Shown here: positions 11,653 through 53,782 of the stretch, one piece after another | Position numbering within the stretch: position 1 is the first letter of the stretch | Layout of the letters: every line of letters begins with the position of its first letter | Source of the DNA: a bacterium | GTDB taxonomy: Bacteria; Pseudomonadota; Alphaproteobacteria; Rs-D84 | Assembly (NCBI GenBank): GCA_014803525.1 | Contig: JAAVBP010000004.1 | Coordinates: 54,918-118,917, forward strand | Length of the DNA: 64,000 nt | Direction of reading: 5' to 3' | Notes under the pieces: model-generated | Told to the model about the DNA's origin: nothing | The model's input: only the letters and a program-made list of their open reading frames with translations | Database searches by the model: none | Program-made: the position numbers and the translations under genes

Positions 11653-13608
11653 TTAATCGTCAATCCGGCGACCAAAAATTACCACACCCAACACAGACAC
11701 CAATAAAACAATTATCGTCCACACATCGCGACCAATGCGACGATATGGCGTCATATGCGCGTCACCTGCGCGCCCGTCCAGCCACCCTGTCACACCAATT
11801 GGAATCTGTGAAATAATTTTACCGTCCGGTGCAACAAATGCACTGATACCAGAATAATTTGCACGAATAACCGGCAACCCTGATTCGATCGCATAGCGCC
11901 GCACCATATCCAAATGCTGGTACGTTCCAGGCGTACGCCCAAACCATGTATCATTGGTAATATTGATTATTGCGCTGGGCAATTCACCACGCGGGATCAA
12001 AGAATCAGAAAAAATAATTTCATAACAAATCGCCGGCACAAAAACAAATTCGCGACCATTTATATCGATACTTAATAACCGCGGCCCATCGCCCGACGTC
12101 AGGTCTGCTGGCGACGGCATTATTCCCATTGGACTGTATTCGCCAAACGGTACCAGATGCGATTTTGCATAAATATCGGAAACACGCCCCACAGGTGTGG
12201 CCAACACCATTGAATTATACATATGACCATCCATATACGCCGTTGCCCCCATCACAACAGGCACACCCAATATTTTTGAAAACGGCATATCATCGTCTGT
12301 TATAACAAACGGATACGACGTTTCTGGATAGACAATCAAATCAGGCCGCGCCGACATATCTCCATCGGCCCCCAACGCCAATAACATGCGAACATTACGT
12401 TCGGCACGCGCAATCACATCGGCATGGGAATACGACATCTTTTCATCCTGGGGCGCGGCCGGCTGCACAATACGAACAAGCGGAGAATCCGTATCCGGCA
12501 TTTGATTTGAAATATAAATATTATGACGCCCATACCATACACCACACACCAACATAAAAACGAATACAAGCCACGGAATCATGTACATAGCGCGTTTTTT
12601 CGCACGTAAAAATTCAACCGTCGCCGCGATAATTCCGACTATAATAAACGTCAGCCCAACCGCCCCAAACAATGCCATAGAATTTGCAACCATCGGCATC
12701 GGCATCATAATATTTGCCAAGGGATTCCATGGAAATCCGGTCAACACCCATTCACGCGCCCACAGCACCGCGACCCACGCGCCCGCAAAAACGAATGGTC
12801 TGGCCAAGGGCCGTGCGCGCGCTGCTGCAACAAACGGAAATGAAAAGATAATCGCACCCGCCAACGCCAGCCCCAGTATTCCCGGCACCGTCCATATGGC
12901 AAATTGTTGCGCCAGTTCAGGCACAACATATATTGAATGCAGTGCCCACCAAAACATAGCAACCGAATATGCTGCACCAAATGGTGCCACACATAAAAAC
13001 GTGCGCCATACAGATGTACGCGGTGCACCGGTTATCAACCAATATGCCCCCCCTATCCCCAGCAATGTTATCGGCCACATATAAAACGGTGCAAAACCCA
13101 AGGCCGCCGCCACACCACACGCAATCAACGCAACCGTGCGCCAAAATCCGCCACAACGCTGCGGCATCACACTATCAGATTCATATGGATTTTTTATCCC
13201 CAATTTTTCCAATATTTTTATTTCCTTGGCCTCCATTATTTCAGCCTCGTCATCCTGGATATGATCATATCCCTGCAGATGCAGCATTCCATGCACAACC
13301 ATATGCGCAGTGTGTTCGGCAATCGATATTCCGGCGTCACGCGCCTGGCGCGCAACGGTATCCAGCGATATATAAATATCACCTAATAACAGGTCATCAC
13401 CCAGTTCAAATGATAAAACATTTGTCGGTTTGTCTATCCCGCGATATTCTTTGTTTAATTGATGAATTTCCGTATCATCGGTCAGTATAATAGAAACCTC
13501 AACCCCGGCGCGGCGCGGCCCGGCGGCGGTTGCGATTTTCTTAAAATCTATCTTGTACTTTTTCCAGCGCGGATCGTTATAATTAACAAAAACTTGCATA
13601 TCCATCAC
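11653..13608 (-). CDS. lnt: in-frame fusion: endoribonuclease YbeY domain (about aa 1-145) + apolipoprotein N-acyltransferase Lnt (about aa 148-651)
   Basis: HGMLHLQGYDH zinc motif of YbeY; Lnt transmembrane region plus CN-hydrolase motifs (VYPETSYPF, PAICYEIIF); no stop codon between the two domains. Confidence 0.8.
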   Translation of the reverse strand: MMDMQVFVNYNDPRWKKYKIDFKKIATAAGPRRAGVEVSIILTDDTEIHQLNKEYRGIDKPTNVLSFELGDDLLLGDIYISLDTVARQARDAGISIAEHTAHMVVHGMLHLQGYDHIQDDEAEIMEAKEIKILEKLGIKNPYESDSVMPQRCGGFWRTVALIACGVAAALGFAPFYMWPITLLGIGGAYWLITGAPRTSVWRTFLCVAPFGAAYSVAMFWWALHSIYVVPELAQQFAIWTVPGILGLALAGAIIFSFPFVAAARARPLARPFVFAGAWVAVLWAREWVLTGFPWNPLANIMMPMPMVANSMALFGAVGLTFIIVGIIAATVEFLRAKKRAMYMIPWLVFVFMLVCGVWYGRHNIYISNQMPDTDSPLVRIVQPAAPQDEKMSYSHADVIARAERNVRMLLALGADGDMSARPDLIVYPETSYPFVITDDDMPFSKILGVPVVMGATAYMDGHMYNSMVLATPVGRVSDIYAKSHLVPFGEYSPMGIMPSPADLTSGDGPRLLSIDINGREFVFVPAICYEIIFSDSLIPRGELPSAIINITNDTWFGRTPGTYQHLDMVRRYAIESGLPVIRANYSGISAFVAPDGKIISQIPIGVTGWLDGRAGDAHMTPYRRIGRDVWTIIVLLVSVLGVVIFGRRIDD

Positions 13609-19093: not shown

Positions 19094-20389
19094 TTATTTT
19101 TTTATCGCCTCGTACCACTTTTTCGCACTATTCCACATGATATTTATGTTGTTTTTCGCCGTCTGATAGAACTTGTCCGATATCTGAATATTAAATAACG
19201 TCTTGACCAGTGCTGGAATCATCGTCATAAACATTGAAATAAATATACCCATCATCAGGATTGTTATCACACTGTCGTTGCGCATCATCAGTCCATCCAT
19301 CAAAATTCGCGAATCGTTTTGCGCCAATGCCATTCCTAATCGCGATGCCCCACCCCATTTGCCGAACACCGCATTTAAAAACATTATCGCAAACGTCAGG
19401 AATACACCCGTCATTGCAATACCGACGGTGCCCTTTATAACATCGTCAATCATCTGTTTTATGGTGCGGCCACCCTGGGGAAAAATCTGCCATCCAGAAA
19501 ACAACCACCCCATCAGCATCAATGGCAACATAATTAAATCCATCGCCAACGTTATAAATATTTCCAGGAAATACACCGGGATCGGCAACAACGCCATAAT
19601 AAACAACACCAATATGGTCAGACCCGCAAAAAATATCGGCACATTTGGAAAAATCGGAATTCCCCACATTATCTTGTGCATATATTCCGAATCAAACGCC
19701 ATGTTCAACATCGCCCACCCTATCGTCATCCCCAGGCCGGTTATCTGGTGAACATTTCCAACCTCGCACGCCAGGTTATATCGCAGCATTGGCGAAAACG
19801 CCCCGGCATCCGCCGACGCCGATGTGGAAATCGCCGGATCTGCCATTGCGGTGGCAACAACGCATTCTGTAAAATTACCATCACCGCCGATATTTGCGGC
19901 AATATGATTCACAGACAGACCGACTGTAAATATCGGTTGGATAACAATTGAACTGATCATACGGGGCAACGGCATCACCAGAACCGCACACACCAATCCC
20001 AATTTTATCAAATGCACCCCGAAATCAGACGTAATCGACCACGGCTGATCTATTTTTGCATTTATGAATCCGGAAAAAATCTTCCATCCAAACCACACAC
20101 ATGACAAAATTACAACAAATGGAATTATCACAGTGCCCAGCGCACTGTACGCCTTGGGCAACAAATCAGACATAGTGGCCATAACACCACTGAACATGTC
20201 ACACGACCAACAGGTTGAAAAAAACGACAGCGCATCCGACATATCAAACGGTACCGCATTACGATATACTGAAAATCCAACTATTCCGACCGCACCCGCA
20301 ATTCCACCGACAATAAATGGCGCGACCGCCCCGGCAGACAACGGCAAGAACGACAAAAATACAATCCAAAATTTTTTTAATGCGCTCAT
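19094..20389 (-). CDS. polytopic membrane protein, paralog P0 of a 5-member family (VirB6/TrbL-like hypothesis)
   Basis: Start at the internal Met (MSALKKFWIVFLSFLPLSAGAVAP, signal-like); many transmembrane helices; CWSC motif shared with paralogs; hydrophilic C-terminus. Confidence 0.6.
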   Translation of the reverse strand: MSALKKFWIVFLSFLPLSAGAVAPFIVGGIAGAVGIVGFSVYRNAVPFDMSDALSFFSTCWSCDMFSGVMATMSDLLPKAYSALGTVIIPFVVILSCVWFGWKIFSGFINAKIDQPWSITSDFGVHLIKLGLVCAVLVMPLPRMISSIVIQPIFTVGLSVNHIAANIGGDGNFTECVVATAMADPAISTSASADAGAFSPMLRYNLACEVGNVHQITGLGMTIGWAMLNMAFDSEYMHKIMWGIPIFPNVPIFFAGLTILVLFIMALLPIPVYFLEIFITLAMDLIMLPLMLMGWLFSGWQIFPQGGRTIKQMIDDVIKGTVGIAMTGVFLTFAIMFLNAVFGKWGGASRLGMALAQNDSRILMDGLMMRNDSVITILMMGIFISMFMTMIPALVKTLFNIQISDKFYQTAKNNINIMWNSAKKWYEAIKK

Positions 20390-20399
20390 TGCTTTTAAG

Positions 20400-20429
20400 T
20401 ATATCACATTTTGTCCCAAATGTGATATA
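20400..20429. promoter_or_regulatory. perfect 12-6-12 inverted repeat (TATATCACATTT-tgtccc-AAATGTGATATA) in the divergent promoter region
   Basis: Seen directly in the sequence; lies between the start codons at 20389 (minus) and 20451 (plus). Confidence 0.65.
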
Positions 20430-20450
20430 ATTGAAAAAAATATATTATAA

Positions 20451-21743
20451 ATGAAAACGTTGCACAGAATCTTATCCGGAACATTGTTGGCATGTATTAT
20501 GCTGTGCCCGTGCGCCGCGCATGCCGAATGGGGCATCGTGGACAGCCTGAATCTGGCGCCGTTTGTTCCACTGGTTTTGGATGCGTTTATGACGGTTGCA
20601 ACCGGCGGATATGAATTCTTGGTTCGTGACACAAATGGCCACATGGGAATTATATACGTTCTGATATGGGGATTTTTAGCCATATCTATGGGGTTGTATC
20701 TGGTAAAGATGTACTTTCCATCAAAATGGCTGGGCGTGTTTGGATTTTCCGGCGGCGGTGAAATGATTTCCGGCAAAGCAACCGGTATGACCATCGCACA
20801 AAACATGCTAAAGCCTGCCATGCGCGCAATTATCGCGGCGGTTGTTTTACTGCAGATAAAGCCGATATATGTAACAGAATGGCTGGTAAATCCATTTATG
20901 GAATTCGGCGCAATTTATACAGATGCCATCACCAGCGGGATTAACACCGGCGGCATTACGGGTGGCACCACAGAACCGGTCGAATGTCCGCAGGATATAC
21001 TGTCCCAGGGATGGATTTCCGCGCGCAGTTGCACATTCATAACCCAACCCGTTGCCGACATCAGTCACGTAAACAATCAAATGATAAAGCGCGGCCTGGA
21101 CTTTGTGCACCGTGGGCTGCGGGGATTAATCACACTGATCCCGCATGGCGGTACAGATTTCATGAATCTGGTATCAGGTATATTGTTGGTCGTGACATTT
21201 GTCGGATGCAATCTGTTTATGGCCCTGCTGATTATCCAGGCGATATTTGATTTCGGCATGTCGTTGATTCTGTATCCGTTCCAGGTTTTGACATGGGTCG
21301 CAAAACCAAAAAATCCAGACAAATGGTTTGATGTATGGCCGGCATTTTCTGGAATTATCAAGGCACTGCAGAGTATGGTTATAACCATGATTGCATGCGC
21401 GTTTATATTAACAATCAATATCGCAATTATACGCGCATTGTTTAATTGGAACAATTCTGTGTTTGTCGTGGCCGCTGGCGGCAGCGCGTCCAGCAACGTT
21501 CCCACCCCCGCGGGCACCGCCATGGGATTTGGCGAACATTCCATTTTATGGCTGTCTGCGATACTGACGTTTTATTTGATGTTGCGCATATTTAATTTAA
21601 CACGCGAAAGATTAAGTATGTACGCACCCGCCAAAGACACCATGTACAAAAAGGTAACCGGCGATACAAAACGTCTGTTGGGCGATGCCAAGAATTGGGG
21701 CAAAACAATCGGCCGGGCCGCTGGATGGATAAAGAAAAAATAA
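20451..21743 (+). CDS. polytopic membrane protein, paralog P1
   Basis: Signal peptide, at least 6 transmembrane helices, Lys-rich C-terminus. Confidence 0.65.
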   Translation: MKTLHRILSGTLLACIMLCPCAAHAEWGIVDSLNLAPFVPLVLDAFMTVATGGYEFLVRDTNGHMGIIYVLIWGFLAISMGLYLVKMYFPSKWLGVFGFSGGGEMISGKATGMTIAQNMLKPAMRAIIAAVVLLQIKPIYVTEWLVNPFMEFGAIYTDAITSGINTGGITGGTTEPVECPQDILSQGWISARSCTFITQPVADISHVNNQMIKRGLDFVHRGLRGLITLIPHGGTDFMNLVSGILLVVTFVGCNLFMALLIIQAIFDFGMSLILYPFQVLTWVAKPKNPDKWFDVWPAFSGIIKALQSMVITMIACAFILTINIAIIRALFNWNNSVFVVAAGGSASSNVPTPAGTAMGFGEHSILWLSAILTFYLMLRIFNLTRERLSMYAPAKDTMYKKVTGDTKRLLGDAKNWGKTIGRAAGWIKKK

Positions 21744-22919
21744 ATGAACAATGTGCTGAACCCTTTGATTGATGAAACGGTGCAATGTTGGGGTTGCCCG
21801 GTATTTGACCGCCTGTTTGGCGTGATATCCACCGCGGCGGCGGCCGTGTACGACCGGTTTGTGGTTATATGCGCCGTTTTGTTCTGTATATTGTTTGCAT
21901 TCTTTGCATTAAATGCGGTATGGAAAAACATTCGCGGCGGCGGCACTGATCCGTTTTATCAAAAATCACTGCGCCCGGTTATTATAAATTCAATTGTTGC
22001 ATTTTCATTGCTGGGACTTGGGGTGGCATTGCCCCGTTTTGTGTCGCAAATCACATTTGAACCGGTTGCCGATATAACAACAATTTATACACAAAGCATT
22101 TTGCAAACAGATGCGGACACCGTAAACGAACGCGTCACGTATCAACCCATGCCAATGCCGGATGATGGTTTCTATCGGCCCCAATTGCGTGATAAAATAA
22201 TACTGATTATGAAGACAACAATCACCCAGTTTCAATCATATATGAAACTGGGGCTGGCGGTGATAGATCGCGCATTCGAATGGGATGCCATGTTGGGGAT
22301 CGGGGCGTTTTTAAAACATATAATCATTCTGTTTTTAGGGATATATTTGTTTTATGGATTTTTCAAATTATTTATAAAGTTCTGTTTTTATTTTGCAGAT
22401 GTAATTATCGCAATGACATTTTTTGCATTCTTTTTCCCATTTTCTATAACCATGGTGGCATTCCGTGGCGCAGACGGACCAAAGTGGATGTCAGGGCTGG
22501 CCAAAAACGTTGGCACAGACCAATTTAAAAAAGTTGTTGGTGCCATAATCGGCCTGGCGGCAACAGTGTTAACATACACTGTGATGATGGTAATAATTGC
22601 AAAATATTTTTCCGCACCGGGCCAATCACCAACGGAATTAATGACACTTATCCAAGACGGCAATGTGTTTTCCGCCGACCTGAACGAAGACAACATTGCC
22701 CAGATTACGTTATTCAGTGCAATCGTTTTGGTTTATGTTCTGAACTTTATATATGAACAAATCCCCAAGGCAACACAAATGGTGCTTAGCGCGTTTGACG
22801 TCAGCACGGAAACCGCCCTTAGCGAGCAATTGGCCAATGACGCAATGCGGCTGACATCTGTGGCGGCCAGTTATATAAAAAACATTGGCGGCAAAATAAC
22901 AAACGGCGGTAATAAATGA
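21744..22919 (+). CDS. polytopic membrane protein, paralog P2
   Basis: Starts immediately after the P1 stop; CWGC motif; multiple transmembrane helices. Confidence 0.65.
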   Translation: MNNVLNPLIDETVQCWGCPVFDRLFGVISTAAAAVYDRFVVICAVLFCILFAFFALNAVWKNIRGGGTDPFYQKSLRPVIINSIVAFSLLGLGVALPRFVSQITFEPVADITTIYTQSILQTDADTVNERVTYQPMPMPDDGFYRPQLRDKIILIMKTTITQFQSYMKLGLAVIDRAFEWDAMLGIGAFLKHIIILFLGIYLFYGFFKLFIKFCFYFADVIIAMTFFAFFFPFSITMVAFRGADGPKWMSGLAKNVGTDQFKKVVGAIIGLAATVLTYTVMMVIIAKYFSAPGQSPTELMTLIQDGNVFSADLNEDNIAQITLFSAIVLVYVLNFIYEQIPKATQMVLSAFDVSTETALSEQLANDAMRLTSVAASYIKNIGGKITNGGNK

Positions 22920-24355
22920 AAGCGCAACTGATCATGATTGGCATACGACTGGTAATGGGTGCAATTGCGCTGGGGGTTGGTATATGGTATTTGTCATCAT
23001 CGATCGGCGGCGCGGCAATTACATATACCAGCATGGATAATTTCATGTCCGCCATCGGTGCATCCAATGATATTGCCGGCGCCAATGGATGCTTTATGTG
23101 CGGATATGTATCGGAACTGTTCGGTGTAATCGGACGTGCAACCGAAATGTTTTGGACAGCGATATTGGATTGGCTGTGGGTGCTGATGGCCCTGGGGTTT
23201 GGCGTATTTTTATTTATCAGTGCCATCCAGCATATATTCGCCGCCGCCAAAGACACCGCAAAAGTGGATGCCAACGAAAAAAAATTGGAATTCAAATCCT
23301 GGTTTGACAAGGTCTGGCGCCAAGGCGCGCGCATAATGATTGTTGGCGCGATGATTGGGGCACTGGGCATGGGCGGAACAACCGCACTGAGAAGTGTTGC
23401 AAGCGTAACAATTACACCCGTAATGTTTGTGGGCGCTGAATTATCCATGGCGGCGACCGGCACAGGATCCGCTGCACAATGTAATGCCATTCGCACATCA
23501 GCCAATGATGCAGGCGATATTCTAAACCCGATAATGGGCCCGTTTATGTGCGTCGTCGGAAATTTAAACAGTGTAATGTTGGCGGGCGCGGCCGGCGGAT
23601 TTGCATTGATGAACTATGCGTGGATGGGAATGGGCGGCGGAATATTTACGTGGGTCGCGGGATTGGCACTGGTTCTGATGTTTTTGGTGATTGGATTTAA
23701 TTTATTTTTCCAGGTTCTGTCGGTCGTATTTAAACTGGTGTTTTTGATAATATTCCTGCCGTTCTTTTTGGCGGCCGCCGCATTTGAAAAGACATGGAAG
23801 ATGGCATCGGGCCTGACCAGTAATGCGATAAACATGCTGGTAAAATCCGCAGTGCAAATTGTCGGTATCACATTAAAAGTATTAATTATTTACGCAACCG
23901 TGTCATATGCCGCCGATGAATTTTTCCCCGGCCCCGCCGATGGATACAGTGCGATTTTTCCACCAATCCTTAGTGCAACACCACAAAACCCAGACGCACA
24001 AACAATGTCCGTGATACAGGTATTTTCAGAATGCGAACGCGTGGCAACGATCGGCGGCGAAATGGATGCGGATGCATTCAAAAACTGTTTTGTCACCCGC
24101 AAAGCATCGGTTGAACAACAATACCCCGGCGCATTTGATTTCATGTCCGATGGGTGGGATTTCCTGATGTTGATGATTGGATTATTCCTGTTGTATTTCT
24201 ATGTTGTTGAACCGCGTGTGAACAAGATACTGGCCGCCCCCGGCAAGGATGAATTTGACTTTGGCACATGGACCAAAGATTTAGGCAAAAAGATATGGTC
24301 GGCACCCACACAAATATTTGGCGCCGTGTCCAAGGCAATGGGCAAAAAGGACTGA
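22916..24355 (+). CDS. polytopic membrane protein, paralog P3
   Basis: ATGA overlap with P2 (translational coupling); CFMC motif; multiple transmembrane helices. Confidence 0.65.
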   Translation: MKAQLIMIGIRLVMGAIALGVGIWYLSSSIGGAAITYTSMDNFMSAIGASNDIAGANGCFMCGYVSELFGVIGRATEMFWTAILDWLWVLMALGFGVFLFISAIQHIFAAAKDTAKVDANEKKLEFKSWFDKVWRQGARIMIVGAMIGALGMGGTTALRSVASVTITPVMFVGAELSMAATGTGSAAQCNAIRTSANDAGDILNPIMGPFMCVVGNLNSVMLAGAAGGFALMNYAWMGMGGGIFTWVAGLALVLMFLVIGFNLFFQVLSVVFKLVFLIIFLPFFLAAAAFEKTWKMASGLTSNAINMLVKSAVQIVGITLKVLIIYATVSYAADEFFPGPADGYSAIFPPILSATPQNPDAQTMSVIQVFSECERVATIGGEMDADAFKNCFVTRKASVEQQYPGAFDFMSDGWDFLMLMIGLFLLYFYVVEPRVNKILAAPGKDEFDFGTWTKDLGKKIWSAPTQIFGAVSKAMGKKD

Positions 24356-24359
24356 CGCG

Positions 24360-25670
24360 ATGAAATGGCCAAATAAATTTTTAAAGAAAATTATCACGTG
24401 CCTGGTCGTGGCAACATTGGTTTTTTCCGCGGCGCACGCGGCCGGAAACCTGCCCGGCGCCGCAGGTGGCGACATTGGCGATTATGGCGCATGGACAACA
24501 CCAAACAATCGCGAACAAATCACAGGCGCCATGTCACGCGACCTGGATGCATTTCAATCTGAATTTCAAACCCAGGTTATAGATAATTATGTCCCGATCG
24601 AGGCCAAAGTCGGCATCGCATTTATAAACGGCATGGCGTATATAGGCCGCGTTTTGGACGGTTCACTGGTGCGTTTTATGACAATATTCATATTGATAAT
24701 GTTCATATTCTGGGTCAGTTTTGAGGCATACCAGATTATAACCGGCACCACAGAAATTAAAAAGTCAATCGAAGGCATCGTCAAAAAAGGCGGCATGATT
24801 GCAATATGGTTAATCGTACTGCAATTTGGTGCCGCACAAATTTTCATGTGGGTGATGGGCCCGATTATAACCATCGGCACATATACATCGGATTTAATTT
24901 TGAATGCGGTAACATCAACCGCGGGCGCATCCCTGCCGGACACATGTGGCGCGATACGCGAATACGCCGCCACGCACGTATCAAACGCCGCCATTGTCGA
25001 TGCAAATGCGGCGGCAGATTTGATATGTTTGCCAACGCGACTGTCCGGATTTTTCTATACCGCCGTGGCGGTTGGATTTAAATGGATGTTGCTTGGGATC
25101 GGGTTCAGTGCCCTGACCTTTATGGCGGGTGCGATATTTGTAGTGGTGTTTTTAATTTTGATTTGGAAATTTGCATTGCTGGCACTTGGCGTGATTGCAG
25201 ATCTATTTTTAGCCGTATTCATGTTGCCGTTCACCGCGGTCGCGGAAACAATTGGTCAAACATCGTACAAGGGAATCGCCGGCAACATATTCAACGGATT
25301 TTTAAAAATATTTAATGCAGAATCATTATCAACACAAATCGGACGCTTTATTAACGCGGCATTGTTCTTTGTGTCTTATTCAATTGTGATCGCGGTATGC
25401 GCGGCATTGATGACCGGTATAATTGATGTTAAATTATCGGCCGTCACACCATTGATAAACACCGATCAATGGATTATCGTTATACTGATCGGGGCACTGG
25501 TATGGTATCTGGCGGACAAGGCATCGAAAATCGCAAAAGATCTGGGCGGCAATATCGACGACAACATCGGCCAGCAATTTGGCAAAGATATCGTAACCTG
25601 GGCCAAGGATATTCAGAAAACATATCAGAAATATCGCAAATTATACCAAGACAGCAAAAAATCATCTTAG
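24360..25670 (+). CDS. polytopic membrane protein, paralog P4
   Basis: Start MKWPNKFLKK... with signal peptide, 5 nt after the P3 stop. Confidence 0.65.
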   Translation: MKWPNKFLKKIITCLVVATLVFSAAHAAGNLPGAAGGDIGDYGAWTTPNNREQITGAMSRDLDAFQSEFQTQVIDNYVPIEAKVGIAFINGMAYIGRVLDGSLVRFMTIFILIMFIFWVSFEAYQIITGTTEIKKSIEGIVKKGGMIAIWLIVLQFGAAQIFMWVMGPIITIGTYTSDLILNAVTSTAGASLPDTCGAIREYAATHVSNAAIVDANAAADLICLPTRLSGFFYTAVAVGFKWMLLGIGFSALTFMAGAIFVVVFLILIWKFALLALGVIADLFLAVFMLPFTAVAETIGQTSYKGIAGNIFNGFLKIFNAESLSTQIGRFINAALFFVSYSIVIAVCAALMTGIIDVKLSAVTPLINTDQWIIVILIGALVWYLADKASKIAKDLGGNIDDNIGQQFGKDIVTWAKDIQKTYQKYRKLYQDSKKSS

Positions 25671-28603: not shown

Positions 28604-31033
28604 TCATTCCCCGCTTGGGCTGCATACGCCATTTTTCAAACTATATCCCGACTTACAAACACAAATACCGGTTGTCGGATTACGTTCCATATTTTTACCA
28701 CCGCACTTTTGCACACATGAACTACCAAATACCTCGTATCCAACTTTACATCTGCAATACTCATTGACATATGCGCTATAGACATCAGTCGATGTTATTA
28801 TTCTGTCGCCAGAATAAATAGTCGACCAAAACAGATCCTTGGACCAGCCCGTTATACCAACACCCGTTAAGTGGATTGGGGTACACGTCATATCATTGCT
28901 TCGCGCCCTTTCAGGGGAACAAGTACTACCGTCGTTTTCTATAAGTTCCAATACCTCTGTACGTGATTTTGATACATATTCCGAATTTTCTGGGCACAGC
29001 ATAGATTGATAGAATATCTTGGACACTTCTTCGATATAACATTGTGGTGAATCATCAGTATATCCATCCATTTCACAACTGTTGTTATCATATATCGCCA
29101 TACCACAGGTCAGTGCCACATTCCGGCATGCACCATTCATTACGTTTTTAATACTGGATGCCGCGGCCGACGTGGTCCATGTATTAATCTGGGTAACCTG
29201 TTGGTTATAACATGCGGCCACATCCAACATACAATTGGACGCATAATCAGAAATAATTTTTTCCTGGCCCGATTTGATATTAACCATTGCACGCTGGATA
29301 TAATTTACAACAATGTCATTATATTTATTATAGTTACCGTTGCTGTCATACGTGTAACGCTGACACTTGTCCAAAACGGCACGGCACAATCCCCCGTCGG
29401 TGGATTTGGCGCCGGTTCCGATTTTTTGTAACAAATATGCAACCGTGCACGATCCGTTTCCAACATTTTTTACATACGTTCCTTTATCATTTTCAGAGGA
29501 ACCAACAGTACCATCTGTATATGCTGTCAGAGTATTACCATTCTGGTATACAGGATATGGCTTGCAAGTGTTATCCGATATCAACAGCCCAGCAGCATCG
29601 GTTAAGAATTTTGTATTTATTTGTGAATTATCATACGCGTACATCAAATCACGGATATTGGTTACGTCCATCCCCAGAACAACTTCGCCATTTTCGTCGA
29701 TATACTTTTTGGTCGGATCCAGACACTTTTCATAATTTTCACCACAAACCATTTCGTCGGTCATGCACGCATCCAATGCGGCAATACAACCCTTGGCATC
29801 ATATTCGTTTTTATTTTGCAACACGGCCAGTCGCGCCTTTTGCAGCATTAAATTCGCACTGCGTACATTCGACACCAATGTTTCATTCATTTTGTTCAAA
29901 CCGGCCTCGTACGCGATACAATCGCGATCAATCGCCAGGTCGTAATTTGATGTAATCTGATCCTTGGTCGCGCCGGCGTCTTTGCATTGTGTCAGAATTG
30001 AATTGCAACGCTTTTTCGCCGCGTTATATAATTCGGTCCCACGCAGGTTTGAAATACTGCTGCTGTTGTTATTTAAAAAATCCAAACTAAACAAATCCGA
30101 CGAATCAGAAAAATCCAGATTCATATCCATCAAGGATATTCCATCCGTACCGGCAACACTGCTGGTGGAACTGGATGGATCTTTGATTAATGCCGCAATA
30201 TCGTCCAGCATGCTGCGTGTTTCCGATGTATCACGCGAACCAGACAGTGCCTCTTCTGCCTCGGTCGCGGACATGATCGCACTGATTTCATCCGCAGACA
30301 GGCCAACATAACGAATACGCTGGGCCACGTCATTTAATTGCGAATTCGCATCCTTGACCGCGGTTTCAACCTTGGTATAACGGGATAAATTGGCACTGCA
30401 TGAACAGCGCTTTTGATTTGAATCAACAACGGCACAAAATTGATCCATGCAATCGTTATACTGTTCTTGGCAAGACTTGTTCAATTCGGCTGTTTGTTCA
30501 AGACGCTCTTTGGCCTCTGAAATTGTTTCGCGTTGATTTTTTGCGGTACCCGCGCGCGACTGTAATGCACGCACAGAATTCCCGACATTTGATCCCGTCT
30601 GAACACCGGTATTACCAATTGTGGCGCGACCGCCAACCTCGGCCGTGGATGGGCGCAGTGTCAATCCCGCACGCCGCACCGGCGCCGTATTATTAATCGA
30701 TGATGCCGCACGCGTGGAATTACGGCCAACTGTATTCGTCGCCGCATCCAAACCGGTACGCGAGGATGATACATTTGCGGTCGTGCCACGGGCCGCGGTT
30801 GCGCGTGATGACACGGTTCCGGTGCCTGATGTTGACGTGGCGGTTGCATTGGAACGCGTTGCACGCGACACCGCGCTGCGCGATGCATCGCCGTCCCCAC
30901 GCGTCGATGTTGATGTGGCGGTGGTATCCGCGGTGGCGTTTGAATTTCCCGACGGTAACGCACGCGACGCCGTGGCGCCACTGGCACCAGACATAACAAA
31001 AACTGATAAAATATATGCAATCAGCCTTTTCAT
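28604..31033 (-). CDS. large secreted Cys-rich protein with an S/T/A/R-rich low-complexity N-terminal region
   Basis: Signal peptide MKRLIAYILSVFVMSGASGA; about 170 aa of low complexity; then a Cys-rich globular region of about 600 aa. Confidence 0.6.
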   Translation of the reverse strand: MKRLIAYILSVFVMSGASGATASRALPSGNSNATADTTATSTSTRGDGDASRSAVSRATRSNATATSTSGTGTVSSRATAARGTTANVSSSRTGLDAATNTVGRNSTRAASSINNTAPVRRAGLTLRPSTAEVGGRATIGNTGVQTGSNVGNSVRALQSRAGTAKNQRETISEAKERLEQTAELNKSCQEQYNDCMDQFCAVVDSNQKRCSCSANLSRYTKVETAVKDANSQLNDVAQRIRYVGLSADEISAIMSATEAEEALSGSRDTSETRSMLDDIAALIKDPSSSTSSVAGTDGISLMDMNLDFSDSSDLFSLDFLNNNSSSISNLRGTELYNAAKKRCNSILTQCKDAGATKDQITSNYDLAIDRDCIAYEAGLNKMNETLVSNVRSANLMLQKARLAVLQNKNEYDAKGCIAALDACMTDEMVCGENYEKCLDPTKKYIDENGEVVLGMDVTNIRDLMYAYDNSQINTKFLTDAAGLLISDNTCKPYPVYQNGNTLTAYTDGTVGSSENDKGTYVKNVGNGSCTVAYLLQKIGTGAKSTDGGLCRAVLDKCQRYTYDSNGNYNKYNDIVVNYIQRAMVNIKSGQEKIISDYASNCMLDVAACYNQQVTQINTWTTSAAASSIKNVMNGACRNVALTCGMAIYDNNSCEMDGYTDDSPQCYIEEVSKIFYQSMLCPENSEYVSKSRTEVLELIENDGSTCSPERARSNDMTCTPIHLTGVGITGWSKDLFWSTIYSGDRIITSTDVYSAYVNEYCRCKVGYEVFGSSCVQKCGGKNMERNPTTGICVCKSGYSLKNGVCSPSGE

Positions 31034-31118
31034 TCCTGATATTTATTATACCACAACGTAACAGCACAAAAAAGGCCAAAATAAACACCGCCCCGTTTTT
31101 ATTCGGGGCGGCGCATAA

Positions 31119-31847
31119 TCAGAACAATATATTTAATTTCAAACCAACCTGAAATTCGCTGTCTTCGAATTCATAATCGACATGCCCGATATATTGCGTG
31201 CGACCATATTGGCGAATAATCTGTCCGTTTATCCATTCCTGGTCAAAGTCCGGATTGGTGGACTTTCGCAAATCCGCCCCCAGCCCCAGACGCCACGCGG
31301 CACGCAATCTAAAATAAACCTCTGGTATGAAATCAATGTATGACATGCCACGGTCATCATCGAAAATCCAACTGGACTTTACCGTACCGGCCAATGTCAT
31401 TGTATCATATTCGCGCCCGAAACGCAGACCCGCATAATATGTTGAATCTGCAAACCATGGGGTGCGCACACGTGATGAACCGCCAAACTTAAAACCAAAC
31501 AAAACATCGGATATGATACGCACATCATTGTCCGCCGCGGTCATCATGCGATATTTTCCGCCCAAATCAAAGCTTGAGAAACCGTCTTCACCACCCGCAA
31601 AATCATTTTGATAATGCAGCGAAATTCCCATATTAAACCGATCGGTAAACCCGTACGACAATGCCTGGCCCAGGCGCAAAATACTGTCGTAATATGCAAC
31701 GTTTGATGTCGATAAAATATCACCCCGCCCGTTCATATATAACGGATCCGATGTATCATATTCTGCAACATTTGCGTGCGCCGACACCACCGCACCAGAC
31801 ATGACAACCGCCGCCGCGGCCGCCATAAATATTTTTTTGAACCACAT
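31119..31847 (-). CDS. outer-membrane beta-barrel protein (OMP1)
   Basis: Signal peptide; alternating hydrophobic pattern; C-terminal ...NILF. Confidence 0.6.
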   Translation of the reverse strand: MWFKKIFMAAAAAVVMSGAVVSAHANVAEYDTSDPLYMNGRGDILSTSNVAYYDSILRLGQALSYGFTDRFNMGISLHYQNDFAGGEDGFSSFDLGGKYRMMTAADNDVRIISDVLFGFKFGGSSRVRTPWFADSTYYAGLRFGREYDTMTLAGTVKSSWIFDDDRGMSYIDFIPEVYFRLRAAWRLGLGADLRKSTNPDFDQEWINGQIIRQYGRTQYIGHVDYEFEDSEFQVGLKLNILF

Positions 31848-31874
31848 TTTTATTTACCCCCGCATTATAAACAC

Positions 31875-31907
31875 GCGCCACACCCCGGATTAATCCGGGG
31901 GGCGCGC
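31875..31907 (-). terminator. GC-rich hairpin between OMP2 and OMP1
   Basis: cgcgccacaccccggattaatccggggggcgcg nested stem. Confidence 0.45.
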
Positions 31908-31919
31908 ACATGACCAACT

Positions 31920-33188
31920 TTAGAACTGGAATATTGCCTGCAGACCAATGGTCGTTTCCTTGTAATCGGATAATTTGGCATCACCCTGCTTCATCCATCC
32001 GTTTACATAGGCCGCATCCTCTTCGGACCAATAACCATATGCCCAGTATCCCAATTTTTTATCATCCGCACTGTCATAGAACGCGGTCTTGGCATACAGG
32101 TTCAATGCAAACCAATCATTGGGCTGCCAACCGATGGCACCCTTGATCGACGCCTGGTTGTGCCAGTCATAATCGCCAAACACCGCCTCCAGATTCAATG
32201 TCCAATCTTCGTCCAGAACAGTGAACGCACCGATACCACCTTCGACATAGAACACATTGTCGACATCCGTATCATACGCGATAAAGATAGATGCCTCGTT
32301 TCCTTCTTCGGTCGTTCCGGTTATACCATTACCATATGAATTACCGTCAAAGTCAACATACCACCCGCGCAGTACGCCATATATTGTGCTGCGTGAAACT
32401 TTGTATCCCCCCTTTAGATCCAGGATATAACTGTTGGCAATATCTTTTTGATGTTGGAAATATCCGGACAATGTTCCAATCCATTTTGCATCGTCGATAA
32501 AGCGCCACTGGGCACCCAACCCCCACAGGTTCAGACCATTGTCATCCATTTTATCATCCGGCGCGGTCGACCAATCGAATTTGTATTTTGTTGAATCATA
32601 CTTTGCCATCGCAATAACTGCCAAACGATCTGTGATACCATAGCTGAAATCTTCTTTGATCGAAAACGCCTTGGCATCCCATTTGGCACGTGTATCGGAA
32701 ATCGTTATACCTTCGGCCGGGGTTAATGCAATGTCATACGAATTCATGTCATAAGATAAATCGGTGACCGAACCGAACTTGCCCTTTAACGGTTGAAAGA
32801 ACGGATGCGCCAAATAATATTTACGTTTCAGTTCGCTGCGTACGGTTTCGGCACGGGTTGTGCGAACATTGCGTGAAGTTGTGGTTGTCGTCGCCGAAGT
32901 ATACGCCGAAGTCCCCAGACGGGTATTGCTGTCGTACTGTTTGTACATGGCGCTGCGCGAACTTGGCTGTGAATAATACAAATCACCCGCATCACGTGAC
33001 TGATATGTCGTGGTTGTGCTGCGCGTCTGATACTTTTGATAATTGACATTATCGCGACTGCGCATGGCCGGCGCACCAGTTAAATCCGCACTGGATGCCG
33101 CGCGCGGACGAACATTTGTTGCGGCCCAAACCGGGCTTAACCCCAATACAGCCGCCGCCCATACAAATAAAGACATCTGCTTTTTCAT
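31920..33188 (-). CDS. outer-membrane beta-barrel protein / porin-like (OMP2)
   Basis: Start at the internal Met (MKKQMSLFVWAAAVLGLSPVWA); Tyr/Gln/Thr-rich N-terminal region; C-terminal ...LQAIFQF. Confidence 0.6.
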   Translation of the reverse strand: MKKQMSLFVWAAAVLGLSPVWAATNVRPRAASSADLTGAPAMRSRDNVNYQKYQTRSTTTTYQSRDAGDLYYSQPSSRSAMYKQYDSNTRLGTSAYTSATTTTTSRNVRTTRAETVRSELKRKYYLAHPFFQPLKGKFGSVTDLSYDMNSYDIALTPAEGITISDTRAKWDAKAFSIKEDFSYGITDRLAVIAMAKYDSTKYKFDWSTAPDDKMDDNGLNLWGLGAQWRFIDDAKWIGTLSGYFQHQKDIANSYILDLKGGYKVSRSTIYGVLRGWYVDFDGNSYGNGITGTTEEGNEASIFIAYDTDVDNVFYVEGGIGAFTVLDEDWTLNLEAVFGDYDWHNQASIKGAIGWQPNDWFALNLYAKTAFYDSADDKKLGYWAYGYWSEEDAAYVNGWMKQGDAKLSDYKETTIGLQAIFQF

Positions 33189-33262
33189 GATTTTATTTCT
33201 CCTTTTGGCTTGGATTATATCACAAAAAGGTAACCCAAAAAAGCATAAAGTAATTCGTACAT

Positions 33263-33850
33263 CTAAAACAGATATCCGATCGCGACCCCGGCGCGACTGT
33301 GACGCGCAGATATTTTTACCGGCACGTCCGATATACTGTAACGCAGGCGCGCACGCGACCATATCTCATATATTTTTATAAACGTATTGGCCGATATGTT
33401 TATCCGCATGCCAATGCCGCCACCATATATAAACCCGCGGTCATGAAAATGCGCGTCATCAAACTTTACGTCCGTAATGCCAATTTCCCCGATTGCATAC
33501 GGTGTGATGGCAAACGGTAAAATCGGCATTTCCAAGATGGACGTAATATTGCGCATACGCATTCCATCCACATCACGCCAAGACACATTTGCACCAACAG
33601 CAACACCATAAACATCAATTCCGGCAGTGATATTCGGCGCATCAAATTTGTATTTTTGTGTTTCGTTAAATTTATATCCCATTACATCTATTTTTGCGTG
33701 CGTTTTGGCACGAATATCAAATCCGGTGGATATGTAAAAGTAATTATCCTTATGCTCTGTTATACAATCTGAATATATTTCGATTATTTCATCCGCATAT
33801 GCCATGCCACTTATCAGCCCCAGCGTTAATGCGATTGCTGCCTTACGCAT
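33263..33850 (-). CDS. small outer-membrane beta-barrel protein (OMP3)
   Basis: Start MRKAAIALTLGLISGMAYA; C-terminal ...AIGYLF. Confidence 0.55.
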   Translation of the reverse strand: MRKAAIALTLGLISGMAYADEIIEIYSDCITEHKDNYFYISTGFDIRAKTHAKIDVMGYKFNETQKYKFDAPNITAGIDVYGVAVGANVSWRDVDGMRMRNITSILEMPILPFAITPYAIGEIGITDVKFDDAHFHDRGFIYGGGIGMRINISANTFIKIYEIWSRARLRYSISDVPVKISARHSRAGVAIGYLF

Positions 33851-34035
33851 ATTTGCCCCCATTGTTACAATCAAACAAAAAACCACTGGAAACAAATTTC
33901 AAGTGGTTGGAGGTTAAGAACAACCTAGGGATTGCCCACCTTATTCAGATATATCGGTGGCCTCCAACCGTGGTTGGAAAAAATGCGCCTGCGTCCGTAC
34001 CAGACGCACCCTAGGATATCGAGGTTCTTAAGCCC
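33851..34035 (-). promoter_or_regulatory. structured leader element, variant copy B1, upstream of OMP3
   Basis: GGTTGGAGG...CCTCCAACC helix, outer helix TAAGAAC/GTTCTTA, inserted tgcgtc...gacgca hairpin, ccact...agtgg + T-run terminator, then Shine-Dalgarno. Confidence 0.5.
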
Positions 34036-34057
34036 CTTTTACCTTTGTAACAAGGAT

Positions 34058-34273
34058 TCAAATATACCTTGCATTATATAATGTTGTTTGAATAAATTCA
34101 AACGCAAAAATACAACGCCCGTCCAAAATTTGAACGGGACTGGAGTCAGCTATTGCACGGTAAGATGCAAGCGATTTATTGTTATTATTCATCACCATCC
34201 AGTCCCATTTGGGATGGATGTATGAATTTCGCACATACGGGCGCTTACCGGGCCTGGATAGCTGATCCAGCAT
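34058..34273 (-). CDS. small hypothetical protein (71 aa) with its own promoter and a strong Shine-Dalgarno
   Basis: Upstream on the minus strand: TTGCAA, 17-nt spacer, TACTAT, then AAGGAG 6 nt before the ATG. Confidence 0.35.
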   Translation of the reverse strand: MLDQLSRPGKRPYVRNSYIHPKWDWMVMNNNNKSLASYRAIADSSPVQILDGRCIFAFEFIQTTLYNARYI

Positions 34274-34289
34274 AATAAGTCTCCTTACT

Positions 34290-34740
34290 ACAAAGGTAAT
34301 AGTATCCTAAAAAAATCCAAATTGCAAATATTAACTGGATTGCCCCGCCTGCGTTCCTTTTGTCACTCCCGCGGCGGCGGGAGTGGGTCTATTAAATTTT
34401 AATGGTTTTATCTGCACAATTTAACGCAATCGTTTTGTAATAACTTTATAGACCCTATTCCCGTTCTTTGAAAAACAATTATCAATTGTTTTTCAAATTC
34501 AGTGCGGGAATGACAAATTTGCCACCCCCCGATGGCTGGCGCCATCACCCCCCGCCCACGGCGGTGGGAATTAATACATTCCACACTCGGACGAATTGCC
34601 CCCGCCTGGGCGGGGGCTGGCAGTCGATAGACTGACTGGGGGTGGCCTGTTACGTACCCCGCGACACTTGCCACCCCCCGGTGCTACGCACCACCCCCCG
34701 CCCGCGGCGGTGGGCATTAGTATATTGCAAGCACAAATAA
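34290..34740. repeat. cluster of GC-rich palindromic repeat modules
   Basis: Same module set as 1735-2030 and 48076-48560, plus modules tttgtcactcccgcggcggcgggagtgggtctatt and tttatagaccctattcccgttctttgaaaaacaattatcaattgtttttcaaattcagtgcgggaatgacaa (the latter also at 54365-54440). Confidence 0.65.
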
Positions 34741-34799
34741 CTTTTTCACTATATCGCTGCCCCTGCCTGTACTAGGCTCAGATTAAAGTTCTCCTCCGG

Positions 34800-35095
34800 C
34801 GGAGGAGAACTTGGACCGTTCGCCGGACTCCTGAAAATTTATTAGAATGATACAGATGCACGAAAAATGGGTTGCAAAAAAACAAAGCTCGTTTACCGGG
34901 CTCTCGTAAAATAATTAGAATGATGTAGATATGTGAAATTCCGGCAACGTAGTGTACAAGACGTACATGAGTTACAAAAATAAAGCCCGTTCGCTAGACT
35001 CCTGAAAATTTATTAGAATGATACAGATGCACGAAAAATGGGTTGCGTAGTGTATTGGACATACATGAGCAACCCATTTTACGCGCAGATGCGTT
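34800..35095. repeat. tandem direct repeat, unit about 90 bp in three diverged copies with an about 180 bp period, ending in a 12-bp-stem hairpin
   Basis: gactcctgaaaatttattagaatgatacagatgcacgaaaaatgggttgc occurs at about 34817 and about 34997 with a diverged copy between; terminal hairpin aaaatgggttgc...gcaacccatttt. Confidence 0.6.
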
Positions 35096-35096
35096 A

Positions 35097-48567: not shown

Positions 48568-49845
48568 TTAGTGTTTCCCACCAATCTTGGTGCGCCCACC
48601 CATAAGCGGTTGCAGGCATTTCGGAATATTTACCGACCCGTCTGCATTCTGGTGATTTTCCAAAACCGGCACCAGCGCACGCGGCATCGCAATACCCGTA
48701 TTGTTAAGTGTTGCACAGAATTGCAACGTGCCATCCGCCGCGCGGTAACGCGTGTTTGTACGGCGCGCCTGGAATTGGCCAATGGATGAACAGCTGCCCA
48801 GCTCGCGATAGTTATTTTCACTGGGGAACCAGGCCTCGACATCATTCATTTTAACCTTGTTGAAACCCATGTCGCCGGTGCATGCCGCGATAACGCGATA
48901 TGGTAATTCCAAATCCTCCATAACCTCACACAAATTATTCAGCAAGAATTCATGCATTTTGTCACTTTGTTCCGGTGTACAGTAAATGTATTGTTCCACC
49001 TTGTTAAACTGGTGCACGCGTATCAGACCGCGTGTATCGCGACCGGCGGCACCGGCCTCTTTACGAAAGCATGCAGAAAATCCCGCATACATCAGCGGCA
49101 GGTCGGATTCATTCAGAACCTCGCCCGAATGCAGGGAATTCATTATAATTTCCGATGTCCCGGCCAGACAACGATCTGTACCCGATAACATAAACACATC
49201 GTCATTCATCACCGACATATCCGCGCCCATAAAGTGTCCGGCATTAAATATTGTTTGCGGACGCGTAATCGACGGACATTCGATAAAGCGAAATCCCTTG
49301 GCGATTAATTTCTGGATCACATACGTTTCAATGGCCAGTTGTAATTCTGCGGCCTCGCCCATTAATGCATACGTGCGCGCGCCACAAATATTTGAAATCT
49401 TTTCCGGCGCCCACCATCCGTTCATATCCAGCAAATCCCACTGTGCCCGCGGGGTAAAATCAAATTTGCGCGGCGTGCCAACGCGGCGAATCTCAACATT
49501 TTCCGTATCGTCCGCGCCAATTGGTGTATCACTTGACGGGATCTGGGGTACGCGATGCATCAGGTCAGACAGCTGCGCCTCTTTTTCTTCCAACTCTGCG
49601 ATTTCATTTGCAATCTCGGCCGCAATTTTCTTGGATGCCGCGATCAACGGCGCACGGTCGGTGGCCGTCGGTATTTCGCGTGTAATTTTATTCTTTTCCG
49701 CCGTCTTGGTCTGGGTCAGTGTTTTCAGTTCACGCACACGCACGTCCAGTGCCAGAATATCATCGACTACGTCAGGCAGATTTTTGACATTGCATGCGTT
49801 TTTTACAACATCCGGGTTTTCACGTATAAATTTAATATCCAGCAT
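48568..49845 (-). CDS. serS: serine--tRNA ligase
   Basis: N-terminal coiled-coil plus class II catalytic core; start at the internal Met (MLDIKFIRENP); the ORF-track start is over-extended. Confidence 0.9.
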   Translation of the reverse strand: MLDIKFIRENPDVVKNACNVKNLPDVVDDILALDVRVRELKTLTQTKTAEKNKITREIPTATDRAPLIAASKKIAAEIANEIAELEEKEAQLSDLMHRVPQIPSSDTPIGADDTENVEIRRVGTPRKFDFTPRAQWDLLDMNGWWAPEKISNICGARTYALMGEAAELQLAIETYVIQKLIAKGFRFIECPSITRPQTIFNAGHFMGADMSVMNDDVFMLSGTDRCLAGTSEIIMNSLHSGEVLNESDLPLMYAGFSACFRKEAGAAGRDTRGLIRVHQFNKVEQYIYCTPEQSDKMHEFLLNNLCEVMEDLELPYRVIAACTGDMGFNKVKMNDVEAWFPSENNYRELGSCSSIGQFQARRTNTRYRAADGTLQFCATLNNTGIAMPRALVPVLENHQNADGSVNIPKCLQPLMGGRTKIGGKH

Positions 49846-49978
49846 TTTTATTCCTCTTTTGCCCTTAAATATAATATCGCGCGCACGGATAAGCAAATAT
49901 AAAATACATTTGCGAATTGGACGCGCATATGCTAGCCTTGCATTGACAATATCTGTAACAAGGAAAGGAAAAATTAAA

Positions 49979-53754: not shown

Positions 53755-53782
53755 CACGGGGCATCTGCCCCGTGTTTTTATT
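53755..53782. terminator. bidirectional intrinsic terminator (cacggggcatctgccccgtg + T-run)
   Basis: Hairpin plus T-run. Confidence 0.65.

Follow-up and report, generated by a model that had tools for sequence, protein, structure and literature searches.

TraN of F-type conjugation and the chlamydial protein OmcB are Cys-rich, beta-rich proteins of the bacterial envelope, and the variable region of TraN selects the outer membrane protein (OMP) of the partner cell. In eukaryotes, the trypanosome variant surface glycoprotein (VSG) and haptoglobin-hemoglobin receptor (HpHbR) and the Duffy-binding-like (DBL) domains of Plasmodium are helical surface proteins held by a glycosylphosphatidylinositol or transmembrane anchor. 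Listeria-Bacteroides repeats and epidermal growth factor (EGF)-like repeats are likewise typical of surface proteins. Here we describe a Cys-rich protein of 809 amino acids (aa), designated big809, which shares features with each of these groups and is the founder of an undescribed family restricted to Rs-D84-type gut Alphaproteobacteria. It is encoded, together with three predicted OMPs (OMP1, OMP2, and OMP3), between positions 28604 and 33850 of a 64,000-nucleotide (nt) stretch of contig JAAVBP010000004.1 (GenBank assembly GCA_014803525.1, positions 54,918 to 118,917). This whole stretch is referred to as the window, and all coordinates below are positions within it.

The window derives from an uncultured, genome-reduced gut alphaproteobacterium of the order Rs-D84. 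The genomes of Rs-D84 or "Candidatus Enterousia" are mostly smaller than 1 Mb, lack the tricarboxylic acid cycle, the respiratory chain, part of glycolysis, and the standard transporters, and encode many hypothetical membrane proteins; these gut Alphaproteobacteria are common in humans, mice, and livestock, and they are suspected to depend on partners, with nothing known of their mode of attachment and feeding (PMC12306168). The remainder of the window was found to be ordinary chromosome, including thrS, gltX, lnt, rarA, secDF, mutL, lptFG, a xerC-type recombinase gene, trxB, and typA. The presence of genes for lipopolysaccharide export and lipoprotein maturation indicates that the host of these genes is diderm. 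No genes for secretion systems, including type IV secretion systems (T4SS) and conjugation, were seen among the window genes. The first-pass annotation of this DNA, made from the sequence alone, had likened the four genes to surface-antigen or adhesin loci of obligate intracellular alphaproteobacteria and had proposed the Sca, OmpA/B, and OmpW families for comparison. This analogy was abandoned, as the organism belongs to a gut lineage that is not documented as obligately intracellular, and no such family or autotransporter signature was found for the four proteins. Open reading frames (ORFs) were present for all four minus-strand genes where it had placed them, and its view that they encode cell envelope proteins was upheld: each product carries a signal peptide, in which a basic n-region is followed by a hydrophobic core and an AxA-type site, as read from the sequence, and OMP2 was confirmed as a barrel as described below.

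The gene for big809 and the parts of its product were delimited as follows.

28604..31033, minus strand: big809, an 809-aa secreted Cys-rich protein; ORF, identical to NCBI HDR61_01420.
30971..31033, minus strand: signal peptide, approximately aa 1 to 21, read by eye, without a lipobox Cys.
30524..30970, minus strand: basic, S/T/A/R-rich disordered N-terminal region, aa 22 to 170, defined by composition.
29084..30523, minus strand: conserved all-alpha core, aa 171 to 650, defined by family alignment and AlphaFold.
28607..29083, minus strand: variable Cys-rich tail, aa 651 to 809, ending with two EGF-like CxCxxGY...C hairpin units.

The signal peptide could be read, from its sequence and from the family alignment, as a basic n-region and a hydrophobic core followed by cleavage at SGASG/ATAS, and the only hydrophobic 19-mer of big809 lay within it. 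The family proved to be large, with 1,093 homologues scored among the clusters at 90% identity, 627 representatives at 50% identity, and matches in 401 species genomes; its members range from 650 to 2,338 aa in length. Its taxonomy was taken from the best 80 of the 401 matching species genomes, and these 80 were gut or rumen metagenome-assembled genomes labelled Alphaproteobacteria, "Candidatus Enterousia," or "uncultured proteobacterium." A viral origin was rejected on the grounds that relatives were absent from IMG/VR. Neither big809 nor any of the three OMPs scored above threshold in Pfam or NCBIfam, and neither single sequences nor profiles of any of the four matched a PDB sequence. Matches below threshold in Pfam and NCBIfam (DUF2959, Ppl, and Asr) were dismissed as coiled-coil or compositional noise, and none of the papers searched describes these proteins. 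The earlier statement that the large protein has no recognisable family was thus borne out at the level of Pfam, NCBIfam, PDB, and fold searches.

The most distinctive property of big809 is its cysteine content. It contains 32 Cys residues (4.0%), against 0.95% when 28 other proteins of the window are pooled, and 18 of the Cys positions in the core are invariant or near-invariant in the family, mostly as C-x6-C pairs on helices that follow the head motif C-x6-C-x4-C-x9-C-x-C. Although the totals per family member vary from tens to more than 100, the number of Cys residues after the signal peptide was even in 223 of 237 members (binomial P = 1e-49). This parity is strong statistical evidence that the Cys residues are all disulfide bonded and hence that the protein folds outside the cytoplasm.

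To obtain a structural model, aa 171 to 809 were submitted to AlphaFold together with 81 diverse aligned sequences. The resulting model had a pLDDT (predicted local distance difference test) of 79.7 and a pTM (predicted template modelling score) of 0.65 and consisted almost entirely of long helices (for instance, of 51 and 47 residues), with small beta hairpins after them at the C terminus. When it was compared by Foldseek with PDB and BFVD, nothing significant was found, the best matches being generic coiled coils with E values of 0.6 to 1.5. A weak internal repeat was detected in the core, where aa 330 to 470 aligned with aa 530 to 650 (hhalign E value of 1e-3, probability of 21%), which suggests that the core may comprise two units of the form "C-x6-C, long helix, C-x6-C." If the model is correct, this disulfide-stapled helical core would be without precedent.

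Between the signal peptide and the core, the composition of aa 24 to 170 was 18% T, 16% A, 15% S, 12% R, and 11% G, with a net charge of +12. The corresponding segment of the 237 family members had a median length of 159 aa and consisted of 14% S, 14% T, 11% R, 16% A, 1.7% K, and 6% D plus E; it is thus rich in Arg and poor in Lys, and the family alignment contains near-invariant Arg columns. The first-pass annotation had called this segment a low-complexity stalk. Its S/T/A/R-rich composition and the Cys richness of the protein were both verified, but the segment is disordered and the rod-like part of big809 is instead the all-alpha Cys-rich core. Such an S/T/R-rich stretch was confined to big809 and OMP2 among the approximately 48 real window proteins. 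A third candidate, the 633-aa ORF at 48986..50887 (plus strand), was recognised as an artefact, its first 320 or so codons being antisense to serS (48568..~49850, minus strand). This ORF represents a trxB-like gene whose 5' end had been called too far upstream; translation would truly start near MNDIIMHDV.

Conservation in the family collapses beyond residue 650 of big809. In the tail (aa 651 to 809), identity to family members was 0 to 0.13, with gaps of 39 to 95%. When pairs of family members were grouped by the identity of their cores, the product of tail identity and coverage was 52% at a core identity of 85 to 95%, 40% at 70 to 85%, and only 6% at 55 to 70%. In one pair, P0284 and P0287, the proteins were 98.6% identical over aa 1 to 990 and then approximately 40% identical in a shifted register, an abrupt change which points to replacement of a module by recombination. 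The tail of big809 contains 7.5% Cys, and its beta hairpins were modelled at a pLDDT of 86 to 90. The pattern CxCxxGYxxxGxxC occurs twice at the C terminus; no Pfam EGF model matched the tail at an E value of ≤1, and the sole fold match was a weak one to the EGF domains of Pfs25 (Foldseek E value of 6.4). In the long homologues, the extra length of the tail is made up of EGF-like CxCxxG(Y/F)...C units in arrays and of Listeria-Bacteroides repeats (PF09479), the latter detected with E values of 4e-15 and 2e-11; this repeat was absent from the big809 of the window.

These features were compared with those of the described systems. Like TraN and OmcB, big809 appears to be exported by Sec and associated with the envelope and has many conserved Cys residues; unlike these beta-rich proteins, it was modelled as all-alpha, and the window revealed no genes for conjugation. 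As no Pfam match was found at an E value of ≤1, nor any NCBIfam or PDB fold match, assignment to TraN or to the chlamydial Cys-rich OMPs was rejected. Classification as a Sca-like or classical type Va autotransporter was also rejected, since no Pfam match to the autotransporter barrel (PF03797) was obtained and the C terminus consists of small EGF-like hairpins in place of a barrel. With VSG, HpHbR, and DBL, big809 has in common a bundle of long helices, conserved disulfides, and a fast-evolving part, which we regard as an analogy of design and not as homology; the HpHbR of Trypanosoma brucei (4WJG) was among the weak Foldseek matches, at a nonsignificant E value of 9.6. The long members of the family share both repeat types with the surface proteins that carry PF09479 and EGF-like units, and the big809 of the window itself ends in two EGF-like units, but those surface proteins have no counterpart to the conserved N-terminal 650 residues. 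The likely role of big809, that of a variable envelope or surface protein, is a familiar one, here in a structural form that is new.

We suggest that big809 may be a disulfide-stapled stalk protein of the envelope or surface that presents a variable tip and contacts other cells, a proposal whose chances we regard as about even. The protein would be exported through Sec, and its Cys residues would be oxidised outside the cytoplasm, so that nine conserved Cys pairs staple the elongated all-alpha core and further disulfides form in the tail. The Arg/Ser/Thr-rich N-terminal segment may tether big809 to an anionic component of the envelope or to a partner that it has in common with OMP2; the N-terminal extension of OMP2 would lie in the periplasm. 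The conserved helical core would then act as a rigid stalk, and the fast-diversifying, module-swapping Cys-rich tail would form the exposed end for binding to mucus, the host, or a partner cell. In this proposal surface exposure, tethering, a role like that of an adhesin, and passage across the outer membrane are what we infer, and several points weigh against it. A barrel, a lipobox, and any recognisable signal for type I, type V, or type IX secretion are all absent from big809, and nothing places it on the surface; moreover, a folded, disulfide-bonded protein of 80 kDa would need a route through the outer membrane, and none is apparent. The disulfides would also be accounted for by a periplasmic location. 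Relaxed constraint, as opposed to diversifying selection, could produce the fast divergence of the tail, which in the big809 of the window is short (159 aa) and has no adhesion domain recognised by Pfam. The tethering role suggested for the basic segment, finally, is read from its composition.

The three OMP genes lie upstream of big809 on the same strand and were delimited, with the parts of OMP2 and a hairpin in the gap between OMP1 and big809, as follows.

31085..31114, minus strand: terminator-like hairpin in the OMP1/big809 gap, 11 pairs of which 9 are G-C, followed by a T-run; match to the consensus pattern only.
31119..31847, minus strand: OMP1, a 242-aa probable small outer membrane beta-barrel of a lineage-specific family.
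31920..33188, minus strand: OMP2, a 422-aa outer membrane beta-barrel protein, identified by AlphaFold and Foldseek.
31923-32777, minus strand: barrel of OMP2, aa 138 to 422.
32778-33122, minus strand: basic disordered N-terminal extension of OMP2, aa 23 to 137.
33263..33850, minus strand: OMP3, a 195-aa probable small (8-strand-type) OMP, identical to NCBI MBD5400394.1.

To learn whether the four genes belong together, tblastn was run with the window proteins as queries on 84 loci, each encoding a relative of big809 (labelled L001 and so on). The OMPs adjoined big809 in only 3 of these, two from the window's own species (L001 and L002) and one from a close relative (L005), and OMP3 adjoined it in the window's own species only. 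In other genomes the order was mutL-yajC-secD-secF-S41 peptidase-PAP2-ftsK-OMP2-OMP1-rarA, and OMP1 followed OMP2 in L085, L086, and L005. Judged by this gene order, OMP2 and OMP1 are a conserved pair behind ftsK across Rs-D84/"Ca. Enterousia." big809 was found elsewhere, between rplU-rpmA and dnaQ-uvrD and near an array of membrane protein genes, with a convergent dnaQ-like exonuclease gene and uvrD downstream of it in 59 to 60 of the 84 loci. The window preserves the ftsK-OMP2-OMP1 order with two changes: between ftsK and OMP2 there is an insertion of OMP3 and a repeat-rich spacer of 1.2 kb, and the big809 block is joined on after OMP1, past the terminator-like hairpin. The arrangement is best explained as three separate units that would have been brought together by rearrangement in this lineage. 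The coherent surface-protein locus of the first-pass annotation was therefore not sustained, given the rarity of the adjacency, the separate positions of the units in other genomes, and the hairpin between them.

OMP2 is the one barrel that could be established by structural modelling. Public gene calls and homologues place its start at MKKQMSLF (position 33188), whereas the mechanical ORF reaches 33362. Its family comprises at least 972 homologous clusters at 60 to 80% identity, none with a Pfam domain. Cleavage at VWA/ATN and the C-terminal end IFQF, with alternating hydrophobic residues and Gly at position -7, were read by eye. In the AlphaFold model, run on an alignment of 62 sequences, aa 138 to 421 formed a barrel with a pLDDT of 75 to 88, and aa 1 to 123 were disordered or of low confidence. 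Foldseek matched it to 223 PDB barrel chains at an E value of ≤0.001, the top ones with a probability of 1.0, so that OMP2 is confirmed by prediction as an outer membrane beta-barrel of the closed antiparallel type. The model contained 15 strand segments assigned by DSSP, suggesting that the barrel probably has more than 12 strands, approximately 14 to 16. The composition of aa 23 to 137 was 16% T, 12% S, 11% R, 10% A, 9% Y, and 5% Q, with a net charge of +12. The Y/Q/T-rich character that had been attributed to this extension was thus confirmed. It is not loose low-complexity sequence; it is strongly conserved and includes, just before the barrel, the motif RKYxLAHPF(F)QP..G.FGS, invariant except for one near-invariant Phe.

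The top fold matches of OMP2 included outer membrane barrels of 12 to 14 strands, namely, FapF (5O65/5O67), a COG4313 channel (4RL8), the autotransporter barrels of EstA (3KVN) and EspP (3SLT), and FadL (E values of 7e-8 to 1e-6); Pla/OmpT was matched as well. Target coverage was best for FapF and the COG4313 channel, with target-normalised TM-scores of 0.56 to 0.64. OMP2 thus looks like, and would function like, transport or secretion barrels of middle size. FapF, COG4313 proteins, and FadL also have an N-terminal segment before the barrel, as is conserved in OMP2. They share, however, only 8 to 11% sequence identity with OMP2, which has no match to any PDB sequence, and the disordered, basic, S/T/R/Y-rich extension is unlike the coiled coil or hatch domain of known barrels. 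The ftsK/OMP1/rarA context likewise includes no fap operon, autotransporter passenger, or fatty acid genes. Membership of OMP2 in the FapF, COG4313, or FadL families was consequently rejected, the likeness being structural only.

For OMP1 and OMP3 the assignment is less firm. Of the three beta-barrels previously claimed, OMP2 was established by AlphaFold and Foldseek, and the other two are probably beta-barrels, as suggested by amphipathicity, weak Pfam matches, and hhalign. Signal cleavage was read from the sequence at AHA/NV in OMP1 and AYA/DE in OMP3. The aromatic C termini described for the three OMPs were found as NILF, IFQF, and GYLF, each with alternating hydrophobic residues and Gly at -7. 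To gauge period-2 amphipathicity, an index was calibrated with the OMP2 barrel, as the verified case, and with helical controls; it was 0.33 for OMP1 and 0.375 for OMP3, compared with 0.25 for the OMP2 barrel and 0.05 for the helical controls. A strand count by 9-mers with all five alternate positions hydrophobic was discarded because it could not separate barrels from controls. Pfam matches for the two proteins (PF11383, PF13505, and PF03349) were all below threshold. The OMP1 family has 558 homologues, none with a Pfam domain, and 56 invariant columns; 9 of 40 members weakly matched PF11383 (DUF3187), 1 of 40 had a match of the OMP_b-brl type (E value of 0.021), and hhalign of OMP1 with the OMP2 barrel gave an E value of approximately 1e-3 and a probability of 15 to 20%. 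OMP3 scored 12.1 bits against PF13505 (OMP_b-brl; cutoff of 28.7, E value of 0.22), whereas OMP1 and OMP2 themselves matched none of the OmpA, OmpW, or OMP_b-brl Pfam models. Its cluster at 90% identity contained three members, including a second copy on the same contig (HDR61_01850, 96% identical), and no relatives were found in 82 related loci or in JGI metagenomes. By these comparisons OMP3 is a young, species-specific, and recently duplicated putative small OMP. Both proteins resemble the small 8-strand OMPs (OMP_b-brl/OmpA-OmpW-Opa and DUF3187) in size (176 to 216 mature residues), signal peptide, aromatic C-terminal beta-signal, and strong period-2 amphipathicity, although all matches to these families are below the curated thresholds. 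Unlike those families, OMP1 is tightly conserved within the lineage, and OMP3 has no detectable relatives beyond its own species. Together, the three OMPs are best seen as additions to a kind of protein already known.

OMP3 was also said to be driven by a structured leader element, and the position of such an element directly upstream of the gene was borne out. Its copies in the window were located as follows.

33862..33982, minus strand: structured leader copy before OMP3, directly 5' of the OMP3 ribosome-binding site, ending in a hairpin and U-run.
1518-1638, 54010-54130, and 63722-63842, minus strand: other leader copies, each just 5' of a minus-strand ORF.

The ORFs downstream of the four copies are OMP3, two XRE/HTH-like ORFs of approximately 90 aa (1208..1507 and 53778..54041), and an ORF at 63482..63760. 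The core motif TCCAACCnnGGTTGGAGG had 6 matches, against 0 expected. An alignment of the four copies gave 20 pairs predicted by RNAalifold, 7 of them with compensatory changes. A compensatory change (CCAC/GTGG versus CCGC/GCGG) was seen in the terminal hairpin that precedes the U-run. A search of Rfam with the leader found no family. The spacer between ftsK and OMP3 (33896..35096, 1.2 kb) is built of dispersed repeats, namely, a 60-nt unit present three times and GC-rich hairpins CCCGCGGCGGTGGG. Copies of these repeats recur in the intergenic regions 54275-54440, 1781-1916, 48064-48484, 63905-63955, and 28578-28614, and one copy is just beyond the stop codon of big809.

Two further ORFs of the window were recorded in passing. 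The ORF at 11653..13608 (minus strand) encodes a YbeY endoribonuclease domain fused to apolipoprotein N-acyltransferase (Lnt), and the same fusion was called in L085 and L086. A 181-aa ORF at 8284..8829 (minus strand) contains a dense Cys cluster, CCSTAPGCCASDCPGQAGADAGCIGGCNC, and has no Pfam match.

The array of membrane protein genes near big809 is present in the window.

19094..25670: five orphan polytopic membrane proteins of 437, 430, 391, 479, and 436 aa, four encoded in tandem and the fifth divergently.

The array was the most conserved non-housekeeping neighbour of big809, being found in 44 to 47 of the 84 loci. Its members are distant paralogues of one another (blastp E values of 1e-4 to 1e-6; hhalign probability of 74%), and three of them have a C(W/F)xC motif before a transmembrane segment; the CxxC motif was present in 46 of 46 sequences of unkB, 6 of 6 of unkE, and 35 of 46 of unkC. 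In L024 the array immediately precedes big809 on the same strand, at a distance of 49 nt, and in L020 it adjoins big809. In approximately nine rearranged loci with full flanks, by contrast, the array was not within 8 kb of big809, so the link between the two is a lead and not a result. The array proteins had no match in Pfam, NCBIfam, or PDB by sequence or profile search. An array of TrbL/VirB6 proteins like that of the Rickettsiales rvh T4SS was considered, but PF04610 gave no match at an E value of ≤10 (single sequences, 46 members), and profile searches of PDB found no solved sequences of the VirB6/TrwI type. This interpretation was rejected because of the lack of any profile signal and of T4SS genes in the window. 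Since the array proteins also had no match to the DsbB, VKOR, or DsbD families, a DsbB/VKOR-like role for those with the CxxC motif is retained only as a lead. A second protein, unk690, is a distant paralogue of big809 (blastp E value of 3e-11) built on the same plan, with a signal peptide, an SR-rich segment, and the head motif CxxxYYxCMDEIC...RRCAC. The gene order unk690-rplU-rpmA-big809 was seen in 35 of 81 loci (for example, L003:6660-8732); unk690 lies outside the present window.

These neighbours raise the question of whether big809 is a periplasmic or envelope-spanning part of a lineage-specific membrane apparatus that includes the five array proteins and unk690. Such an apparatus might serve uptake, cell-to-cell connection, or dedicated oxidative folding, with the C(W/F)xC motifs used for thiol-disulfide chemistry or for binding big809. 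In its favour are the conserved proximity of the array, which persists after rearrangement in L020 and L024, the conservation of CxxC in unkB, unkE, and most unkC sequences, the linkage of unk690, and the lack of standard transporters in genomes with many hypothetical membrane proteins (PMC12306168). Nevertheless, dnaQ and uvrD usually intervene and the array is on the opposite strand, so that the linkage may reflect inherited order in small, stable genomes, and it is broken in the rearranged loci noted above. The array proteins belong to none of the DsbB, VKOR, DsbD, TrbL, or VirB6 families by the searches described, and the existence of big809 relatives of up to 2,300 aa, with hypervariable tails and Listeria-Bacteroides repeats, is easier to reconcile with the cell exterior than with the periplasm. 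We therefore consider this apparatus unlikely, while granting it some weight. A composite of the two ideas, in which big809, unk690, and the five CxxC membrane proteins would form an unrecognised envelope apparatus with an Arg-tethered stalk, a recombining Cys-rich tip for docking onto the host surface or a partner cell, and an array for assembly or uptake, is more doubtful still, and we offer it as speculation.

Two other explanations appear very improbable. If the four genes formed one surface-antigen or adhesin operon, the OMPs could serve as anchors or secretion pores for big809, much as in two-partner or autotransporter-like secretion, and it is true that the genes are on the same strand with gaps of 72 to 85 nt, that OMP2 and big809 both have a basic S/T/R-rich N-terminal segment, and that the OMP2 barrel resembles the 12-strand barrels of EstA and EspP as well as FapF, with target-normalised TM-scores of up to 0.64. 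Synteny contradicts this, however, since the adjacency is confined to 3 of 84 loci and the families are conserved at separate places, and the strong terminator-like hairpin parts OMP1 from big809. big809 also has no two-partner secretion, passenger, or barrel domain, and in type V secretion a disulfide-stapled helical rod could not traverse a barrel of 12 to 16 strands. An equally slight chance is given to big809 being a secreted toxin of the polymorphic type, or an effector, whose conserved N-terminal region would direct trafficking and whose variable C-terminal part would be the payload. The conserved-N, variable-C plan and the abrupt tail swap between near-identical genes would suit such a protein, but none of the tails scanned yielded a toxin domain, the tails being composed of Cys-rich repeats and Listeria-Bacteroides repeats instead of enzymes. 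There is also no immunity-like gene downstream, where the next gene is the convergent dnaQ, and the big809 gene occurs once per sampled locus and was found in some 400 species genomes of the lineage.

Several new families stand behind "hypothetical" labels in these genomes, namely, the core family of big809, its paralogue unk690, OMP2, OMP1, and the CxxC membrane array. Should the function of big809 prove to be that of an ordinary envelope structure, the value of these findings would lie mainly in annotation. Should the apparatus with a docking tip be real, it would be a bacterial analogue of the variant surface proteins of parasites, coupled to a feeding device. For a genome of this small size, a conserved secreted protein of 700 to 2,300 aa is conspicuous. 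As the proposed stalk with a variable tip, big809 is a concrete candidate for the molecule through which this widespread and uncultured gut lineage, suspected of depending on partners, makes contact, as well as a possible target for antibodies and for the localisation or enrichment of the uncultured cells.

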